Of a stretch of 64,000 nt of DNA, positions 3,066 through 13,180 are shown in pieces. The translations under genes and the position numbers were made by a program. How positions within the stretch are numbered: position 1 is the first letter of the stretch; each line of letters opens with the position of its first letter. The stretch is from contig JAZNIJ010000160.1 of NCBI GenBank assembly GCA_045577455.1, positions 9,605 through 73,604 on the forward strand. The letters are read 5' to 3'. Source of the stretch: Eubacteriales bacterium. Its GTDB lineage: Bacteria > Bacillota > Clostridia > Oscillospirales > CAG-382. The notes below the pieces were generated by a model. The model did not search any database. It was not told where the DNA came from and saw nothing but the letters and a program-made list of their open reading frames with translations.

Positions 3066-3393
3066 CGTTATCTCCTTTAACTATTTTTATTGCATCTTCT
3101 ACGGAACGAGCTATTCCTGCTCTGCATCCGTATTTGTTTTTCATCGTGTTTATGAAATTTAGCTGTTCAGTGGTGGGTCTGCCATGCTTTGCCTTAACCT
3201 CTACAAACGAAATGAGTCCGTCTTTGATAGCCACCAAGTCTGAAAACCCCTTCGGAACACCCACGTCAAACCACCTGCCGTCAGTCATTTTTACTTTGCC
3301 TGAGTTTATGCGGAATACACAGTAACCGAGTTCGGAGAGTGCAAGGCGTATGCTGTTTTGTATGTCGTGTTCGGTCACAATCCCATCCTCCAC
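3055..3393 (-). CDS. VRR-NUC domain nuclease
   Basis: 112 aa. GFSDLVAIKDGLISFVEVKAKHGRPT gives the D...E-x-K PD-(D/E)xK core in the VRR-NUC arrangement. Confidence 0.75.
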   Translation of the reverse strand: MEDGIVTEHDIQNSIRLALSELGYCVFRINSGKVKMTDGRWFDVGVPKGFSDLVAIKDGLISFVEVKAKHGRPTTEQLNFINTMKNKYGCRAGIARSVEDAIKIVKGDNDGN

Positions 3394-5663
3394 ATATATG
3401 CTCTATACTTTTCGGGTATCGGTATTCCATAGTTTCTTGCAAATCTGAAACACCACTGAAACTTATACCCTCTCGCTTTCTGTATCTTTATAACATCCTC
3501 CCACGTTTCCGCTTTGAGTTCGTTATAGTTTGCTTGCCTTATTTCCTCGTTCCGCTTCAACTCTACAAGGTCAACCTCAACTGTTTTTCTGTCCGTCTTT
3601 CTGATCTCGTGTGTTGCTTCTGCTCCACAGTACGGACATTTAGACAGAGTAGGGGAGTAAACCGCATAGCAAAGCTTGCACTCTCGTATTTTTACTATGT
3701 TTTCTTGCTTATGTTTCGGCTCTAAACTCCACTCTCGTTCATCATCGGGCAAGCCGTGTCTGTAACAGTTCCCAACGTGGTCTATGATTATTGCTGTCTT
3801 ATTCGGCATATATCGCATAGAACGCATTGATTGTTGGATGTGTAATGTGATGCTTTGCGTGGGGCGTAACAACACAACGCACTCACAATCCGGAACATCT
3901 AATCCCTCACCGAATAGCTCACAATTTACGAGTATAGTAATCTCACCGCTTCTAAAACGTTTCATGGCGTTCTCTCGCTCTGCCTGTGGCGTTTTTCCAT
4001 CAAGGGCAATACAACTATACCCTTCTGCTAAAAATCGCTCCGCGGTCTTTTTAGACGCTTCTACGGAAGCACAGTAAACAATGGTTTTCTTGCCCTCTGC
4101 AAGCCGCTTCCATTGCTTAACTGTGTCTCCATAGATTTCTTTGTGTTCCATAAGCTCTTTAACTTCATCTTGTTTGAACTCACCTGCCACTGTGTGCAAA
4201 GTGGATGTGTCTGCGAGTTTCACAGAGTAGTATTTATAGGTCGCAAGATAGCCGTTCTCAATTAGCCACTTTGTGCTGACGGACGTTATCAAGTCCGTGT
4301 AAATTTCACCGAGCCCCCCTTTATTCAAGCGAATGGGAGTTGCTGTGAATCCCAAGTGAATAACACCTGCATAATGGTCGTAAACCTTCTTATATGTATT
4401 TGCGGTGCTGTGGTGGCAGTTGTGTACTAAAATGCCGTTTGCGAAGTAGTTGTGGTTATCCTCGACTTCTAAATTGTAGACATAACCGTCTGTACACAAT
4501 CCTCCAAACGTTCCGTCACTTGTCGGTTGGTGAACCTCAACACGTTCCACCCTAACGAAGTTAAACAAAAATCTTTTTTCTTGTCTTGCTCCTGTCGCTC
4601 GATTGATAAATGACTTCCACCGTCTATCTCGATAGCGATCATTTTCTGTGGCAAGGCTATATCTATCTTGTAAGAAGTTGGATAGTTTGTCTCGTAAGGT
4701 TCTGCGTTTTGAGTAGGAACGGTAAACTCTGAGGCAGGGTTCAATGAACTCAACGCCATAAACATCTTTTCTTGCGGTACAGTCATACCTTTGCCGTTCC
4801 CACCTCTTATTCGAGGCTGATGCCCTATCCGTTTTAGCGTTTGTGCCATTTTCGCCCTTGTTTCTTTGCAGTGCATTGGATTGTTTCGTTTCATTCGTTG
4901 GCTTGCGTATTTCCTGTTTGTGTTTGCCATCGTTATGCTTGAAACCATAGCACAGTATTTTTTTGTACACTCGGTGCAACAATAGATTCTTCCTGTCTTT
5001 TTGTAAGCGTACAGCTTGTGCCGGATTTGATTTTTTGTCAGGTTGCTCAAATCCACCTGCTCCCCACACATCGTACAATAGTAGGTCTCTGACATAATCG
5101 CCCTCCTTTAACTCGATTGCTTCTTTATATCCGTCTCCGTGAACGTAGATAGGATGATTGAAAGTGCATTTTAAACACTTGCCGTTTGAAAGATGCACTT
5201 TTAACAAATTGCTTGGTTTCCGCTTGAAAATGTGAGTTATCCGCTTGGTTTCCACGACATCTTCTTTTTCGTTGTATGACCTTACGAGGTCTCCTTCTTT
5301 AAGAGCAGATATTGGTTTGCCATCAATCAAGGTATCTGCCGTGAAGCACTCGTCGGTAATAACGAGGTCATAGTTCGGGAGTTTCCCAAGTCTGCGTGAT
5401 ACTGTCTGCACCATTGATACATCACAGAGGTTCATATCAACTCCAACAGCTTTGAACGTGTTTGTTATCTGCTGGCACAATTCCTTGCGATGCACAAGGA
5501 AAAGAACTCTCTTGCCCTTATGTGTTACTTGCTTTGCGATGCTGCCCTGAATTACGGATTTCCCACCGCCACATCCGAGAACGGCAACAACAGAGTTATT
5601 GCCGCCACGGATAGAAGCGTATATGTCGCTGATTAGTTTTTCTTGATAGGGTCTGAGTCGCAT
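3375..5663 (-). CDS. SF2 DNA helicase (DEAD/DEAH, phage-type) interrupted by an intein
   Basis: RPYQ, Walker A GCGGGKS, motif II split as VITDE|intein|CHH, and C-terminal helicase motifs (LVNCELFGEGLDVPD, RPTQS). The extein is about 452 aa. Confidence 0.85.
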   Translation of the reverse strand: MRLRPYQEKLISDIYASIRGGNNSVVAVLGCGGGKSVIQGSIAKQVTHKGKRVLFLVHRKELCQQITNTFKAVGVDMNLCDVSMVQTVSRRLGKLPNYDLVITDECFTADTLIDGKPISALKEGDLVRSYNEKEDVVETKRITHIFKRKPSNLLKVHLSNGKCLKCTFNHPIYVHGDGYKEAIELKEGDYVRDLLLYDVWGAGGFEQPDKKSNPAQAVRLQKDRKNLLLHRVYKKILCYGFKHNDGKHKQEIRKPTNETKQSNALQRNKGENGTNAKTDRASASNKRWERQRYDCTARKDVYGVEFIEPCLRVYRSYSKRRTLRDKLSNFLQDRYSLATENDRYRDRRWKSFINRATGARQEKRFLFNFVRVERVEVHQPTSDGTFGGLCTDGYVYNLEVEDNHNYFANGILVHNCHHSTANTYKKVYDHYAGVIHLGFTATPIRLNKGGLGEIYTDLITSVSTKWLIENGYLATYKYYSVKLADTSTLHTVAGEFKQDEVKELMEHKEIYGDTVKQWKRLAEGKKTIVYCASVEASKKTAERFLAEGYSCIALDGKTPQAERENAMKRFRSGEITILVNCELFGEGLDVPDCECVVLLRPTQSITLHIQQSMRSMRYMPNKTAIIIDHVGNCYRHGLPDDEREWSLEPKHKQENIVKIRECKLCYAVYSPTLSKCPYCGAEATHEIRKTDRKTVEVDLVELKRNEEIRQANYNELKAETWEDVIKIQKARGYKFQWCFRFARNYGIPIPEKYRAYMWRMGL
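4419..5348 (-). mobile_element. intein (310 aa) inserted in helicase motif II
   Basis: Begins CFTADTLIDG (Cys1 codon at 5348-5346). Block B is CTFNHPIYV. Ends GILVHN, followed by the +1 Cys codon at 4418-4416. Excision restores DECHH. Confidence 0.75.
4469..5095 (-). CDS. DUF559/Vsr-like endonuclease nested in the intein, in a different reading frame
   Basis: 208 aa. N-terminal CTMC...CCTEC zinc ribbon. C-terminal KMIAIEIDGGSHLSIERQEQDKKKDFCLTSLGWNVLRFTNRQV, as in DUF559 endonucleases. Frame is offset from the helicase frame. Confidence 0.7.
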   Translation of the reverse strand: MSETYYCTMCGEQVDLSNLTKNQIRHKLYAYKKTGRIYCCTECTKKYCAMVSSITMANTNRKYASQRMKRNNPMHCKETRAKMAQTLKRIGHQPRIRGGNGKGMTVPQEKMFMALSSLNPASEFTVPTQNAEPYETNYPTSYKIDIALPQKMIAIEIDGGSHLSIERQEQDKKKDFCLTSLGWNVLRFTNRQVTERLEDCVQTVMSTI

Positions 5664-7640: not shown

Positions 7641-9287
7641 TTAAATTTTCCTTTCGTTTTTGTTTATTGCATCTTGAATCCCTTGCATAACGTACAACGC
7701 ACAAGGAAGTGCAATCCCATTTCCGTACATCTTATACTCCGCGCTGTCTGTATGTAGCTTGTTGTACCAAGTAAGCATTTGTTTCTTGGTGTAGTCTTTA
7801 ACTTGTTTGCCGTTTATTTCTGCGTGAGTATTGCGAACATTCAGCCAAAACTCATATTCTTCGTCTGTGAAATCGTCCTTGTGGTCGATGTGTCCCCAAG
7901 TGTCGGGGAAGCCTTGCAACCTTGCACATTCCGTAGGTGTGAGTCTGCGGACGATGTAGTTGGGCTTTGTATGTAATACGCAGTTGAAATTCTCTTTGTC
8001 TGGCATACGTTGGCTTCCGCCCGCATTGTTTGCGGTGAGTGTTCCTGCGGTTTGAGAGCCATCCCAATAACACACCGCACTCGGTCCTTTAGCTACCAAC
8101 GTAGGGTTTGTCCCATCCTTATAGGTCTGCGGTTCATACTTTGCGTTCTGCCCTTGGTTGAAGAAAGCTCGGTCAACAGCGATGGGTTCTTCATAAGCAA
8201 CGCCATGCACTTCTGCCGTATTCAATGTATAGCTCTTATCTGTTTCGGCATATCCGTTTCCTTTGTGCGAAGGTCTTTGTCCGTTGCCTTCGAGTGCAAT
8301 GGTTTCCATCACCATCGGCACATTGCCACCGCCTGTTCCCATTCGACCTGTCAGGGCTTGTACTTTGCCTTCATCGTCAATCTTGACACGGCTATCGTTG
8401 GGGTGGTTTTCAATAGAATATGCAACACAAGGCGTGTGGTCTGCATCGGCTCGCATTGCTGTTAATGTTTTGGATTTATCTCCCGTAATTGTTTGGTTGT
8501 AGCCGTCGCCCAGAAATACATTTTCTGGTCGAAAACCTAACGGGAATCCATAGCACGTTCTATCATCTGCTCCAACGCTTCCTTCAACATCGGTGGAAGT
8601 TCCTTGCCCCTCTTTTCTGCTCTCCGAAGAATACCCTCGCAGGCTTTGGCGCTCAAATAATATTTCCCTGGCGCATTGACCTCTAAGATCGAGGACAAGA
8701 TATATCCTTCTTCTTCGTTGAGCCGTTCTGATGTATTGAGCATCAAGAACTCTGTAAGCAAGACTCCATCCGTCTCCGCAGTAGTGGTCTGCGTAAGCCC
8801 ATCCTTTCGTTGGAACTTCAGGCATAACGGCTGTCGGCTCTGTGATTTTGATAAGTTCTTCGAGGACGATTTTGAAATCCTCACCTTTGTTGGAGCTGAA
8901 TGCTCCTGGGACGTTTTCCCACACGGCAAACCTTGGATATTTGCCATTTGTTGCACCTCTCATTTCTTTAATTATTCTTACGGCTTCCATAAACAGACCG
9001 CTTCGGGTTGTTTCATCGTCGCCATTGGTTTCGTGTTTCAATCCCGCCTGTTTGCCTGCCACAGATAAATCTTGGCAAGGTGAACCAAACGTGATTATGT
9101 CAGCGGGTTCAATCTCTGCTCCGTTGATTTTTGCTATATCCCCCAAATGCTTCATATTAGGGAAACGTGATTTTGTAACGGCTATCGGATATGGCTCAAC
9201 CTCTGAAGCGGCTATGGGCGTAATGCCGCACAGAACACCTGCGAGTGGAAAACCACCGCTACCGTCAAATAGACTTAATAATTTCAA
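7641..9287 (-). CDS. DNA (cytosine-5)-methyltransferase
   Basis: LFDGSGG (motif I), GSPCQDLS (motif IV), WENVPG (motif VI), QRRRR (motif VIII), GNGIALP (motif X). Long variable target-recognition region. Confidence 0.9.
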   Translation of the reverse strand: MKLLSLFDGSGGFPLAGVLCGITPIAASEVEPYPIAVTKSRFPNMKHLGDIAKINGAEIEPADIITFGSPCQDLSVAGKQAGLKHETNGDDETTRSGLFMEAVRIIKEMRGATNGKYPRFAVWENVPGAFSSNKGEDFKIVLEELIKITEPTAVMPEVPTKGWAYADHYCGDGWSLAYRVLDAQYIRTAQRRRRIYLVLDLRGQCAREILFERQSLRGYSSESRKEGQGTSTDVEGSVGADDRTCYGFPLGFRPENVFLGDGYNQTITGDKSKTLTAMRADADHTPCVAYSIENHPNDSRVKIDDEGKVQALTGRMGTGGGNVPMVMETIALEGNGQRPSHKGNGYAETDKSYTLNTAEVHGVAYEEPIAVDRAFFNQGQNAKYEPQTYKDGTNPTLVAKGPSAVCYWDGSQTAGTLTANNAGGSQRMPDKENFNCVLHTKPNYIVRRLTPTECARLQGFPDTWGHIDHKDDFTDEEYEFWLNVRNTHAEINGKQVKDYTKKQMLTWYNKLHTDSAEYKMYGNGIALPCALYVMQGIQDAINKNERKI

Positions 9288-10093: not shown

Positions 10094-10281
10094 TATTTTT
10101 TCTCCTCGTATTTTTTACCTAATGGGTGTTCAGGGTAAAATCCGTATCGTTCGTAGTGCCATTTTCTATATCCCTCAACGTTCTTTGGGTCCTTGTAATA
10201 ATCAATGATACGGTCATACATCCCTACGAAATACATGGCAAGATTTTCCGCTTGCCATTCTGTTATGATTCTTTCTTCCAT
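10093..10281 (-). CDS. hypothetical phage protein
   Basis: 62-aa ORF, translationally coupled to the downstream gene. Confidence 0.4.
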   Translation of the reverse strand: MEERIITEWQAENLAMYFVGMYDRIIDYYKDPKNVEGYRKWHYERYGFYPEHPLGKKYEEKK

Positions 10282-10309
10282 GGGGGTCTCCTTTGTTTGG
10301 TTAAGTCAA

Positions 10310-10337
10310 AGCGAACTTACGTATTGCGTAAGCTGAC
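10310..10337. promoter_or_regulatory. operator-like inverted repeat CTTACG-N5-CGTAAG (copy 1)
   Basis: agcgaaCTTACGtattgCGTAAGctga. Near-identical to the copy at 10568-10595. Overlaps the stop codon of the cro-like gene. Confidence 0.5.
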
Positions 10338-10550
10338 AGCAAAAAAAATTTCTCCAGCCTTTTTTGACGGCAGATTAAGACAAGATGCTATGTTATACAT
10401 AATCGATGTGGAAGGGGTAATCTTGCCATTCAAGATGCCGTTAACGGTTTTAACACTTATGTTAGCTTTTTGCGAAAGCTCGATTTGAGTTGATATACCT
10501 TCATCAATCATCGCTTTTTTTAGTGCCTTAGTATCAACGGAATATTTCAT
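10317..10550 (-). CDS. Cro-like XRE-family HTH protein
   Basis: 77 aa. STQIELSQKANISVKTVNGILNG helix-turn-helix. Divergent from the CI-like repressor. Confidence 0.7.
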   Translation of the reverse strand: MKYSVDTKALKKAMIDEGISTQIELSQKANISVKTVNGILNGKITPSTSIMYNIASCLNLPSKKAGEIFFAVSLRNT

Positions 10551-10567
10551 TTGTCAACCTCCTCTCT

Positions 10568-10595
10568 AAGCGTACTTACGTATTACGTAAGCTGA
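10568..10595. promoter_or_regulatory. operator-like inverted repeat CTTACG-N5-CGTAAG (copy 2)
   Basis: agcgtaCTTACGtattaCGTAAGctga, immediately downstream of the cro-side -10 box. A degenerate third copy, ACGTtttaTGTAAG, lies at about 10624-10640. Confidence 0.55.
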
Positions 10596-10623
10596 TTATA
10601 GCACGCTACCTCTTATTTGTCAA
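10595..10623 (-). promoter_or_regulatory. sigma-A promoter of the cro-like early operon
   Basis: On the minus strand: TTGACA (10623-10618), 17-nt spacer, TATAAT (10600-10595). Confidence 0.65.
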
Positions 10624-10664
10624 TACGTTTTATGTAAGTTTTTTTATTTTTTTTAAAAAAAATG

Positions 10665-10693
10665 TTGCATATTGAGAAAGTATATGCTATAAT
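10665..10693 (+). promoter_or_regulatory. sigma-A promoter of the CI-like repressor gene
   Basis: TTGCAT (10665-10670), 17-nt spacer ending in TGC, TATAAT (10688-10693). Confidence 0.6.
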
Positions 10694-10723
10694 AAACAAA
10701 AATGAAGTGAGAGGAAACAAATC

Positions 10724-11365
10724 GTGGGAATTTTGCAAGACCGAATAAAAGAATCTCGATTAAGTCGAAACATGACATTAAAAGAGATAGCTGAAAAGCT
10801 CAATGTAAAAGAAGCAACAATGCAAAGATATGAAAGTGGAGAAATAAAAAATATCAAACACGAAACGATAGTATCTCTCGCTGAGATACTTGGCGTAACC
10901 CCCGCATATTTAATGGGGTGGGAAGATGAAAAAGCACCAGAGCACGCTACTACTCTCCCATCCAACGTTCATCCAATTAAAATAAAACGTTTTCCTGTTC
11001 TCGGAGAGATAGCCTGCGGAACGCCAATATTCGCTTCTGAAGATCACGAAACGTATATAGACGCTTCTGCGGACATCAAAGCTGACTTCTGTCTTATAGC
11101 AAAGGGCGATAGTATGACAGGGGCAAGAATCAATAACGGTGACGTGGTTTTTATTCGTGAGCAACCAACCGTAGAAAACGGAGAGATTGCCGCTGTCATC
11201 ATAGGCGAAGAAGCTACATTAAAGCGTTGGTACTTCTACCCAGAAAAAAAGAAACTCATCCTCAGCCCCGAAAACCCATCGTTTGAACCTCTCGTATATA
11301 TTGGCGAAGAACTCAACGAAGTTCGATGTCTCGGCAAAGCAGTTTCATTTATGAGTAAATTGTAA
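10724..11365 (+). CDS. CI/LexA-like repressor (XRE HTH + S24 peptidase)
   Basis: GTG start after GAGAGGA. N-terminal HTH (MTLKEIAEKLNVKEATMQRYESG). C-terminal AKGDSM...LKRW Ser/Lys autoprotease dyad. Confidence 0.85.
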   Translation: MGILQDRIKESRLSRNMTLKEIAEKLNVKEATMQRYESGEIKNIKHETIVSLAEILGVTPAYLMGWEDEKAPEHATTLPSNVHPIKIKRFPVLGEIACGTPIFASEDHETYIDASADIKADFCLIAKGDSMTGARINNGDVVFIREQPTVENGEIAAVIIGEEATLKRWYFYPEKKKLILSPENPSFEPLVYIGEELNEVRCLGKAVSFMSKL

Positions 11366-11632
11366 AAAATGGAAGCATAGGAACAAAATTATAAGTGAAA
11401 TTTCCATTTATAGCGAACAAACATTTGAAAGTATAAAACAAATAGAACGAGAGAGCGAAAAGAAAAAGCTGACTAAAAAAATTAAACTCGTGCTTTTTTT
11501 TGCACAAGTTGACAGTATTTTGGAAAAAAAGAACCTATCCTAATCGGATATGTTTTGAATTTTAAAGAAGCTCCAACGTTTCAATGTTTGAGAGTAGTGT
11601 AAGATTTTAGGTATAAAAAAGGGAAATTCAAA

Positions 11633-13180
11633 ATGAAAAAAGCAGTAATATACGCCCGATACTCCAGCCATAGTCAAAGAGAAGAATCCATAGAAGGACA
11701 ATTGAGAAAATGCTATGAGTTTGCAGAAAAAAACGAATTAACCGTTGTCGGAGAATATGTCGATAGAGCTATTTCGGGTAAAACCGATAACAGAGCCGAT
11801 TTTCAACGAATGATAAAGGACTCTGAAAAAGGTCTTTTTTCTGTTGTAATAATGTATACACTTGACCGTTTTGCAAGAAACAGATACGATTCTGCGATAT
11901 ATAAAGCAAAACTAAAAAAGAATGGTGTAAAAATCTTTTATACAGAACAATCGATAACAGATGAACCCGAAGGAATCATTCTTGAATCCCTTCTTGAAGG
12001 TATGGCGGAGTATTATTCAGAAAACCTTTCAAGAGGTGTAAAACGAGGTATGAAAGAAAACGCTTTAAAATGTATGATAACGGGTGGATATATGCCGTTG
12101 GGTTATCGAAAAACTGCCGACAAAAAATACGAAATAGACCCACGTACAGCACCTATCGTTAAGGAGATTTTTGAGCTTTATGTCAACGGAAAATCACAAA
12201 GGCAAATAGTAGATATCCTTAACGAAAAAGGATATCGAACGGCAATAGGGAAGCCCTTCAGAGTCGGAAGTATGACCTCAATTCTTACCAATAAAAAATA
12301 TATCGGTATATATGAATTTGACGATGTAGTTATCGAAAATGGCGTCCCTTCAATCGTAAGCAAAGAAACATTCTATAGGGTTCAGTCTATGCTCAAACAT
12401 AATAAGCGTTCTTCGGGAAGAATGAAAGGACCAATGCAATACTTGTTAACGGGGAAACTATTTTGTGGCAAATGCGGAAGCCAAATGGTGGGTGAAAGCG
12501 GAACGAGTAAAAACGGAACAATACACAACTATTACACTTGTGTTGACCGCAAAAGAAAGAAAACGTGTGATAAACGAAACGAAAGAAAAGAAATCCTCGA
12601 AAAAGCCGTTGTCACCACAACCATTGAAAATATTCTCAGACCCGAAACAATAGAATATATAGCAGAAAAAATAGTTGAAATAACAGAAAGAGAATTCAAC
12701 GATAAAAGCAGGGTGGAAGCATTAAACGCTCAATTAAAAGAAACTCAGTTATCAATCTCAAATTTATTAAAGCTTGTTGAAAAAGGAATCACAACAGACG
12801 ATATAAGCTCACGTTTGATGGAATTAAGTTCCGAAAAAAGCGACTTGCAAAAACAGATATATGTAGAAGAAATAAAAAAAACGTCAATAACAAAGGAAAG
12901 CATAATATATTGGCTCACAAACTTCATTAAAGACGGGTCAGTAGACGAAGAAGATTATCAACAAAGAATTATAGATACCCTCGTCAACAGAGTATATGTG
13001 TTTGATAACGATGACGGAAGCCGCAAACTTGTTATTACATATAATACAAGTGCTAAAAATTCTTCCACCATCACACTAAAAGATGCTGAATCCCTCTCTT
13101 CGTGTTCGGATGGTGCTGGTTTTGGTCCACCAAATAAAAAACAGCACTATGCGGGAGCATGGTGCTGTTTTTTGTTCTGA
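11633..13180 (+). CDS. large serine recombinase (integrase)
   Basis: AVIYARYSSHSQ catalytic-Ser resolvase domain, a recombinase domain, a CGKCG...YYTC zinc ribbon and a coiled-coil tail. The last ~13 codons run through a terminator hairpin. Confidence 0.9.
   Translation: MKKAVIYARYSSHSQREESIEGQLRKCYEFAEKNELTVVGEYVDRAISGKTDNRADFQRMIKDSEKGLFSVVIMYTLDRFARNRYDSAIYKAKLKKNGVKIFYTEQSITDEPEGIILESLLEGMAEYYSENLSRGVKRGMKENALKCMITGGYMPLGYRKTADKKYEIDPRTAPIVKEIFELYVNGKSQRQIVDILNEKGYRTAIGKPFRVGSMTSILTNKKYIGIYEFDDVVIENGVPSIVSKETFYRVQSMLKHNKRSSGRMKGPMQYLLTGKLFCGKCGSQMVGESGTSKNGTIHNYYTCVDRKRKKTCDKRNERKEILEKAVVTTTIENILRPETIEYIAEKIVEITEREFNDKSRVEALNAQLKETQLSISNLLKLVEKGITTDDISSRLMELSSEKSDLQKQIYVEEIKKTSITKESIIYWLTNFIKDGSVDEEDYQQRIIDTLVNRVYVFDNDDGSRKLVITYNTSAKNSSTITLKDAESLSSCSDGAGFGPPNKKQHYAGAWCCFLF
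13141..13174. terminator. intrinsic terminator (bidirectional) inside the 3' end of the recombinase ORF
   Basis: 12-bp stem ACAGCACTATGC/GCATGGTGCTGT with a GGGA tetraloop, then TTTTTT. An A-run on the left side makes it usable on both strands. Confidence 0.7.

Follow-up and report, generated by a model that had tools for sequence, protein, structure and literature searches.

A predicted intein in motif II of an SF2 helicase with a DUF559/Vsr-like endonuclease gene in a second open frame

The helicase, its insert and the nested gene

The DNA analysed here, called the window throughout, is a stretch of 64,000 nucleotides (nt) from a Eubacteriales bacterium (assembly GCA_045577455.1, contig JAZNIJ010000160.1, positions 9,605 to 73,604 of the forward strand). 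The open reading frame (ORF) listing contains, in a probable prophage replication module on the minus strand, the gene for a superfamily 2 (SF2) helicase precursor of 762 amino acids (aa), intein included (3375..5663). Within motif II this protein is interrupted by a 310-aa insert resembling an intein, and inside the insert a second gene of 208 aa is read from the same strand in the +1 frame relative to the helicase. A first-pass annotation of the window had described this arrangement, and the ORF listing and the sequence bear out all its coordinates and motifs for the helicase ORF, the insert and the nested ORF.

In profile searches the 762-aa protein matched Pfam ResIII (3.1e-21), Helicase_C (4.7e-22) and PHROG 16 'DNA helicase' (1.5e-97). 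Alignment with intein-less homologues assigns helicase residues 1-105 to the N-extein (5349..5663, minus), which ends in ...VITDE, the first half of motif II. The C-extein (3375..4418, minus) begins with the second half of the motif, CHHSTANTY, and extends to the stop codon, taking in Helicase_C and a zinc-ribbon region at the C-terminus. The junctions read ...VITDE / CFTADTLIDG ... NGILVHN / CHHSTAN, and without the insert the protein is 452 aa long and its DECHH motif II is intact. Using the full helicase protein as query we found 1459 homologues, nearly all of them about 452 aa long and carrying ...ITDE-AHH... or ...ITDE-CHH... with nothing between. The intein-less homologues, hundreds of proteins of ~452 aa, read ...ITDE-[A/C]HHSTANTY, and the alignment with them puts the insertion exactly at DE/CHH, where it had been proposed to lie. 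Closest among the intein-less alleles is P0005, with 92% identity to the window protein across the part aligned by BLASTP (46% of the query), and the same ~310-aa insert is carried by P0002, P0003 and P0004 (73-56% overall identity). Named relatives of the helicase belong to Clostridia and Ruminococcus. A megablast search of the helicase gene against phage GenBank records gave no match, so that no annotated close relative was at hand.

The insert (4419..5348, minus) has the anatomy of a class-1 intein of 310 aa, with Cys1, a block B that reads CTFNHPIYV (the TxxH motif lying in CTFNHP at T62/H65), a C-terminus ...GILVHN that ends in His309-Asn310, and a +1 Cys in the CHH that follows. It matched the intein profiles PF14890 Intein_splicing (4.9e-18, 65.8 bits, cut-off 35.8), TIGR01443 (2.5e-9, 37.1 bits, cut-off 15.6, on residues 289-310) and TIGR01445 (1.2e-5, 26.2 bits, cut-off 24.5). 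Cys1, T62-x-x-H65, H309-N310 and the +1 Cys are invariant in the intein alignment. In keeping with a class-1 intein, the insertion is in frame and stands at a conserved site of a host protein that exists also without it. The profile matches and catalytic residues support, at the level of sequence, the earlier identification of the insert as an intein in motif II (DE/CHH), and assign it to class 1.

Comparison with a mini-intein allele that lacks the middle (P0006, at locus L005) divides the insert into three parts. The N-terminal splicing (HINT) segment, residues 1-96 (5061..5348, minus), is conserved in the mini-intein, and its extent agrees with a conservation profile over 78 inteins. The C-terminal HINT segment, residues 257-310 (EKRFLFNFVRVERVEV...YVYNLEVEDNHNYFANGILVHN; 4419..4580, minus), is likewise retained there. 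Between them the host-frame linker, residues 97-256 (4581..5060, minus), is stop-free, poorly conserved and basic (25% K+R), and it gave no Pfam, NCBIfam or PHROG domain. The first-pass annotation had already called this middle part basic and devoid of a recognisable domain, which stands; its limits of about 95-270 do not, and become ~97-256, since the span missing from the mini-intein is exactly the linker. The last ~12 codons of the N-terminal HINT segment and the first ~37 codons of the C-terminal one are also read in the +1 frame, as the N-terminus and the C-terminus of the endonuclease.

The nested gene, of the homing-endonuclease type, occupies 4469..5095 (minus), inside intein residues 85-293. 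Its ATG (5093-5095) is preceded at 6 nt by a Shine-Dalgarno (SD) sequence AGGAGG (5102..5107, minus), and the AAGGAGG that contains it also encodes the conserved K-E-G of the intein's ELKEGDYV. Three regions follow one another in the 208-aa protein, with invariant residues determined over 26 family members. The first is an N-terminal zinc ribbon (C7, C10 ... C39/C40, C43; 4967..5077, minus), in which C7, C10 and C43 are invariant and C39 nearly so, and which gave weak zinc-finger matches in the PDB. The second is a conserved middle region (SSxTMAxTNRKYASxRMKxNNPM...R.KM..TLK.IGH.P.IRGGNG; 4793..4942, minus) with M56, N60, A64, S65, R67, M68, N72, P73, M74, H92, P94, G99, N100 and G101 invariant. 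It is helical in the AlphaFold2 (AF2) model and, by eye only, resembles NUMOD3-type DNA-binding motifs; NUMOD motifs are known in Vsr-like homing endonucleases, according to passages of PMC2677866 and PMC3239194. The third is the DUF559/Vsr-like nuclease domain (YKIDIA...IAIEIDGGSH...QDKKK...GWNVLRFTN; 4478..4675, minus), where K143, D145, E156, D158, H162 and D171 are invariant. Of these, D145, E156, D158, H162 and D171 are candidates for the composite catalytic residues (acidic, acidic, His, Asp) of EDxHD nucleases.

The nuclease assignment of the first-pass annotation is upheld by both sequence and predicted structure. Residues 141-206 matched PF04480 DUF559 at 8.8e-11 (42.1 bits, gathering cut-off 20.6). 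Sequence-profile matches in the PDB were 3hrl (6.2e-10) and 3r3p (2.3e-3), the latter aligning with the E-x-D/N-G block. The AF2 model of the 208-aa protein has a mean pLDDT (predicted score of the local distance difference test) of 87.8, with values of ~90 or more in most of the nuclease domain (10-residue block means 78-97). Its top Foldseek matches, at probability 1.00, were 3R3P (the I-Bth0305I catalytic domain, rank 1) and 3HRL (the DUF559 protein NGO0050), with a template modelling (TM) score of about 0.62 normalised to the target and 16-19% identity in the I-Bth0305I structural alignment. Sequence profile and predicted fold thus support the nested ORF as a DUF559/Vsr-like nuclease. Full-length homologues of the protein, ~200 aa long and 40-59% identical, number 57, and a search of 1.84 billion representatives with a family profile found 728 clusters at 50% identity (E<=1e-30). 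One family member, the Ktedonobacter protein P0132, comes from the locus listed as L094 in the genome scan.

Two open frames in the window and its relatives

Across the nested ORF the helicase frame contains no stop codon, while the third frame contains 18. Shuffling the codon order of the 208-aa ORF gave a mean of 12.5 helicase-frame stops and synonymous resampling a mean of 10.5, and zero stops occurred in none of 20,000 replicates, which puts the double openness, called unlikely by chance in the first-pass annotation, far beyond chance. The open helicase frame places a synonymous constraint on the endonuclease, in which a codon ending in T cannot stand before one starting with AA, AG or GA. 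None of the 59 codons of the window gene in that context ends in T, compared with 43 of 148 elsewhere (29%). In nested copies family-wide the count is 0 of 5120, compared with 24% elsewhere; the four non-nested copies have 11-37% T in the same codon contexts and 4-29 host-frame stops. We also considered an intrinsically stop-poor composition of the family and rejected it, as resampling predicts 3-15 stops per gene and the free-standing relatives do carry stops.

The same layout recurs in relatives. A scan of IMG/VR gave 362 relatives confirmed by tblastn, of which 80 were kept, and a scan of one genome per species gave 26; layouts were counted over the 92 distinct endonuclease ORFs from the viral and genome collections. 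In 88 of the 92 the host frame has no stop (mean expectation 9.7, minimum 3.4), with 4-35 stops in the third frame, and the open host frame always lies within an ORF of 500-1500 aa. These 88 nested loci share the +1 frame and the DE/C…HN/CHH intein at 40-75% protein identity in independent assemblies. The DNA of the close relatives with a full-length or mini-intein has an open helicase frame throughout, and L003 and L004 have an intact +1 ORF as well. The host junctions read xDE/CF... (82 hosts) and ...VHN/CHH or a close variant. All hosts that were run against Pfam proved to be SF2 helicases, and in some of them a second intein, a canonical LAGLIDADG one, occupies a different site. The inteins of L062, L074, L105 and L106 end in Ser-Asn instead of His-Asn (…AVSN/CHH), and the host frame is still open across their endonuclease genes. 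Two inteins per host are seen at L015:1281-5792, L016:1302-4457 and L044:1269-5069, where an in-frame LAGLIDADG intein lies upstream of the DE/CHH intein with the overprinted endonuclease. At three loci in metagenome-assembled genomes (MAGs) of cyanobacteria (L095, L099 and L100) the nested ORF lacks its usual stop and runs ~70 codons into the C-extein region (277 aa), with a normal intein junction, GILVHN/CHH.

This recurrence bears on the possibility, raised in the first-pass annotation, that an in-frame endonuclease domain was shifted out of frame by two compensating indels in assembly or sequencing. Most described inteins do have an in-frame endonuclease, and distant inteins with in-frame DUF559 domains exist (L108-L114). 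Compensating indels would, however, leave unexplained a helicase frame that is free of stops over 209 codons, and they are excluded by the recurrence of one +1 layout, with its own ATG, in 88 distinct and strongly diverged loci. Moreover, the first 12 and last 37 codons of the endonuclease lie over HINT segments whose host-frame reading is conserved and which the mini-intein retains. Because stop avoidance is absolute in nested copies and stops are present in non-nested ones, we consider artefactual and compositional explanations excluded, and give the artefact practically no credence.

Gene callers never report both genes together in L001-L004 and L007-L010. In L001-L004 only the helicase was called; in L007-L010 the endonuclease was called and the helicase was cut in two, its 'truncated' C-terminal part being called just downstream of the endonuclease. 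As callers see only one gene of the pair, mis-annotation probably extends to hundreds of such loci. The calls in L007 and L009 look exactly like a fractured gene with a split intein, in which the helicase would be made as two trans-splicing polypeptides and the endonuclease would be a separate cistron between them. Membership of the Vsr-like superfamily, the gene order and the 3′ overlap with the C-intein all fit that explanation. So does L028 (2350-3507), where the N-extein and N-intein of the helicase are joined in frame, within a 385-aa ORF that ends at the endonuclease stop, to an endonuclease without the first zinc knuckle; this locus may be a derivative of the split or fractured type, a pseudogene, or the result of an indel in assembly. 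In the window, however, there is neither a stop after the N-intein nor a non-coding spacer, and in L007 and L009 full helicase ORFs of 762 and 782 aa are open. The helicase frame is continuous and selected to stay open in the window and 88 relatives, which would be needless under trans-splicing. Because the host frame is unbroken and is kept so by selection, we do not regard the locus as a fractured gene, an explanation that we find highly improbable.

Substitutions indicate which frame is conserved as protein. Pairwise differences among nested copies at endonuclease codon positions 1, 2 and 3 are 0.14-0.42, 0.14-0.34 and 0.35-0.62, and nucleotide diversity over 88 sequences is 0.48, 0.43 and 0.62. 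The same DNA has 52-74% identity in the endonuclease frame compared with 27-52% in the host frame. The concentration of substitutions at endonuclease third positions means that, across the middle of the intein, the endonuclease frame is conserved and the helicase frame is mostly just kept open. In the 3′ overlap with the C-terminal HINT segment, third-position diversity of the endonuclease drops to 0.43-0.47, as expected where both frames constrain the sequence. Codon-position diversity and identities therefore point to purifying selection on the nested reading, with protein-level constraint relaxed for the host reading. Stop avoidance together with the third-position bias supports selection in both frames, as the first-pass annotation had suggested.

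Selection on the host frame might also act on the linker itself, which could, for example, tune splicing or bind nucleic acid. The linker is consistently basic (25% K+R), and a few host-frame positions are moderately conserved across 78 inteins. Those positions coincide with endonuclease motifs, however, and host-frame conservation is lowest in the linker, whose first codon positions are the wobble positions of the endonuclease and the most variable. With no domain matches in the linker, and with a mini-intein that lacks the whole of it sitting in an intact helicase ORF, we think a true double function of the linker quite improbable.

Related forms, expression and a possible mechanism

The element also occurs in other states. 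The mini-intein P0006 (150 aa, without the middle) is found at L005:1648-3459 and L006:463-2274. In alignment with the window intein, the L005 copy matches on either side of a gap of 480 nt, which marks an in-frame deletion within the endonuclease gene. It keeps the SD sequence, the ATG, the first 12 endonuclease codons (MSGKYYCTTCGK) and the last ~37 (KKEYCLNTLGWRVLRFTNKQ...TI*), which form a remnant ORF of 48 codons. Retention of both gene ends indicates that they overlie HINT segments that the intein cannot lose (residues ~85-96 and 257-293). In L001:3569-4195 and in L002 the nested ORF has a single nonsense codon (GAG to TAA at codon 169), the remainder and the helicase frame being intact; the helicase of this allele, P0002, was found on 8 contigs.

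These decayed close relatives raise the question of whether the nested gene of the window is itself a relic, carried by an intein that splices and is inherited only vertically while the endonuclease is inactive or unexpressed. The homing-cycle model does predict decay after fixation. On the other hand, the window ORF is full-length and has all invariant family residues, an intact SD-ATG and a confident predicted fold, and the family-level substitution pattern is that of purifying selection. The intein-less allele P0005, with 92% identity over its aligned part, suggests a recent gain or loss. We therefore regard a relic as unlikely, though it deserves some weight.

Other copies stand free of an intein or lie in frame within one. 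The free-standing copies L011:4001-6036 and L027:2995-5263 lie directly upstream of intein-less SF2 helicases (DEAHH / DEAHR) and overlap their starts, with the expected numbers of stops in the other frames; a third, L075, lies between unrelated genes. Distant relatives (25-32% identity) are in-frame DUF559 domains in inteins of archaeal radical-SAM proteins and of a phage Mu-F-like protein; this set, L108-L114, includes L108, L109, L112 and L114 from archaeal MAGs and L110 from a Bacteroidota MAG. In a rough neighbour-joining tree, built without support values and taken only as a hint, free-standing copies are scattered among the nested ones and the in-frame copies fall outside.

The endonuclease is presumably translated from the helicase mRNA by internal initiation. 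In 77 of 82 loci an ATG lies no more than 24 codons ahead of the first Cys of the zinc ribbon, and the SD-ATG is identical in L001, L003, L004, L007 and the mini-intein L005. A programmed +1 ribosomal frameshift could instead produce a fusion of N-extein, N-intein and endonuclease with no need of an internal start. The +1 relative frame is constant at every locus and one natural fusion exists (L028). That constancy is equally explained by common descent of the intein-endonuclease unit, however, and there is no structured RNA at the site. The ATG directly before the zinc ribbon in those 77 loci, the perfect AGGAGG at 6 nt in the window's clade, and the start of free-standing family members at the same position all speak for an internal start, and on this evidence of start sites and RNA structure we judge frameshifting very unlikely.

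We think it likely that the element is a mobile composite, consisting of a cis-splicing class-1 intein in SF2-helicase motif II and, in the +1 frame, a homing endonuclease gene of the free-standing type. Splicing, internal initiation, nuclease activity, the target site and homing are steps that we infer. The helicase mRNA would be translated straight through the intein, and the N- and C-terminal HINT segments would fold together across a basic, probably unstructured linker of ~160 residues that would be nothing more than the helicase-frame reading of the endonuclease gene. Self-excision of the intein would restore DECHH and an active 452-aa helicase. From the same mRNA, the internal start (AGGAGG, 6 nt, ATG) would yield a separate 24-kDa protein with a zinc ribbon, a helical DNA-binding region and a Vsr-like DUF559 domain. 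This nuclease would cut intein-less helicase alleles, and their repair would then bring in the intein and, along with it, the endonuclease gene (homing). A stop anywhere in the helicase frame would destroy an essential replication gene, which is why this frame stays open.

Several observations weigh against this mechanism. An SD-like motif is present in only 47 of 82 loci, many of which come from lineages that perhaps do not rely on SD sequences. No regulatory hairpin was found at the endonuclease start, where the predicted fold is no better than that of shuffled sequence (z = +1.5), and no minus-strand sigma-70-like promoter site was found inside the gene. For the target site of the endonuclease, analogy with other homing endonucleases is the basis. 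In the host frame, the AF2 model of the intein, made from a five-sequence alignment, has a mean pLDDT of 38.6, with 55-77 for residues 10-90 of the N-terminal HINT segment, 20-46 in the linker and low values also in the C-terminal HINT segment; so poor a model weakly suggests disorder in the linker and fails to separate a disordered linker from a bad prediction.

The helicase gene belongs to a minus-strand phage replication module that extends from position 1 to ~10,100 of the window. It encodes an N6/N4 methylase, a VRR-NUC protein, the intein helicase, a DUF669 protein, an HD protein, an AAA_24 protein, a C5 methylase and a DUF3799 nuclease. After the module comes the gene of a large serine recombinase (11633-13180, plus), gene orientation switches across ~10100-13180, and the G+C content falls from ~0.43-0.46 to ~0.37 beside the recombinase gene. 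This region is probably a prophage boundary with its integrase, and the element carrying the module is most likely a prophage. The 548-aa C5 cytosine methylase (7641-9287, minus) matches its Pfam profile in two separated stretches with an unmatched middle. A 139-aa ORF on the same strand (8537-8956, minus; ending ...YYLSAKACEGILRRAEKRGKELP...) overlaps it in another frame. When this ORF was examined as a second hidden endonuclease, it gave no Pfam match, and the unmatched middle could be an ordinary variable target-recognition region.

Comparison with known systems

The first-pass annotation had taken this organisation to be undescribed, which is not the case. Out-of-frame or antisense endonuclease genes in inteins go back to Gorbalenya 1998, as that work is cited in two preprints. 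One of these reports inteins of actinobacteriophages whose endonuclease genes are LAGLIDADG or VSR-like on the antisense strand, or Endo VII-like in frame 3 (bioRxiv 10.1101/2025.01.02.630785), and the other a cyanobacterial dnaX intein with a +2 LAGLIDADG ORF, an SD sequence and a frame-dependent ratio of nonsynonymous to synonymous substitution rates (dN/dS; bioRxiv 10.64898/2026.09.14.751524). Like those elements, the present one has an endonuclease ORF in another frame between the splicing blocks, a stop-free host frame and an SD sequence before the nested start. The in-frame segment of those inteins is without recognisable or confident structure; that of the window gave no domain match, and low pLDDT in a model that is poor throughout. 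Purifying selection in the nested frame, relaxed constraint on the host-frame protein and coexisting mini-intein alleles are also common to both. The origin proposed for those inteins, invasion of a mini-intein by a free-standing endonuclease gene, we count as shared with the present family.

The two sets differ in host, nuclease and frequency. The hosts there are dnaX, terminase, DNA polymerase, minor capsid protein and thymidylate synthase, and here motif II of an SF2 helicase. The nucleases there are LAGLIDADG (+2 or antisense), Endo VII-like (frame 3) and antisense VSR-like; here a DUF559/Vsr-like protein with a zinc ribbon is read from the same strand in +1. Both preprints call the architecture rare, whereas it dominates here, with 88 of the 92 sampled ORFs, 362 IMG/VR stretches and 728 clusters. 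In further contrast to the dnaX and actinobacteriophage inteins, both ends of the endonuclease gene are here dual-coding with conserved HINT segments. Neither the published out-of-frame endonuclease inteins nor the related literature that we found include a same-strand DUF559/Vsr-like gene in an SF2-helicase intein. A canonical intein has its endonuclease in frame, an arrangement seen for DUF559 only among the distant L108-L114.

An extended interpretation is that, for Vsr-like/DUF559 endonucleases, overprinting is neither a rare accident nor a passing intermediate but made a long-lived, evolutionarily stable mobile unit of intein and endonuclease, and that one ancestral +1 fusion, with the ends of the endonuclease gene laid over HINT coding sequence, radiated through SF2 helicases of phages and bacteria in many phyla. 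The free-standing copies beside intein-less helicases, the mini-inteins and the N-fusion forms would be derived from it. We offer this tentatively, and lean somewhat towards doubting it. If it were true, the Vsr-like/DUF559 family would be nature's own record of the union between self-splicing elements and endonuclease genes, and an arbitrary linker of 160 residues would be compatible with efficient cis-splicing. In an entire lineage of endonucleases this layout can be the norm, where recent work treats it as a rarity. The family offers many independent sequences for studies of selection in overlapping genes, with a clean rule of stop avoidance (0 of 5120). Its free-standing, nested, nonsense-decayed, mini-intein, N-fusion and distant in-frame forms make the origin model 'splicing domain first, endonuclease gene later' testable. 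An intein that naturally tolerates an unrelated linker of ~160 residues is also of interest for engineered inteins.

Other systems share parts of the arrangement. In fractured genes, as passages of PMC2677866 describe them, a Vsr-like or GIY-YIG gene lies between the halves of a split intein, with a stop, a spacer of 27-51 nt, often a hairpin, and trans-splicing. The likenesses to those passages are hosts in phage DNA metabolism, the order N-intein, endonuclease, C-intein on one strand, a Vsr-like nuclease whose N-terminal part has DNA-binding motifs, putative ones in the present family, an overlap of the 3′ end with the C-intein, and free-standing relatives. Unlike the fractured genes described there, the present locus has a continuous host frame, no spacer and no hairpin, and the 5′ end of its endonuclease also overlaps the N-intein. 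The model of Dassa et al. 2009, as set out in the same passages, has the outcomes 'fracture' and 'in-frame insertion'; an endonuclease gene that is out of frame but read through is a third outcome beside these two.

The I-Bth0305I/EDxHD family (Taylor et al. 2011, PMC3239194; 3R3P) is described in the passages of that paper on its architecture as combining an N-terminal DNA-binding region with a C-terminal Vsr-like catalytic domain, and as tied to self-splicing elements in phage DNA-repair and replication genes, both of which apply here, with a predicted DNA-binding region. I-Bth0305I lies, by the same account, in a group I intron of recA, and the present family in a helicase intein. Its members also score far better against DUF559 (PF04480; 3HRL, 6.2e-10) than against I-Bth0305I (3r3p, 2.3e-3), and have an N-terminal zinc ribbon that those passages of PMC3239194 do not mention for the I-Bth0305I family. 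An out-of-frame HNH gene has been reported in an insert of a phage methylase (PMC11855218). Like that ShiLan-type insert, the present one holds a same-strand endonuclease ORF in a stretch of a phage gene that is free of host-frame stops. The ShiLan-type insert has no detectable splicing domain and is thought to be kept as a loop, whereas a complete intein here flanks the insert and would remove it. The kind of element is therefore already described; judged against the passages and papers cited here, what is notable in the present family is its size, the fully conserved two-frame layout and the dual coding at both HINT junctions.

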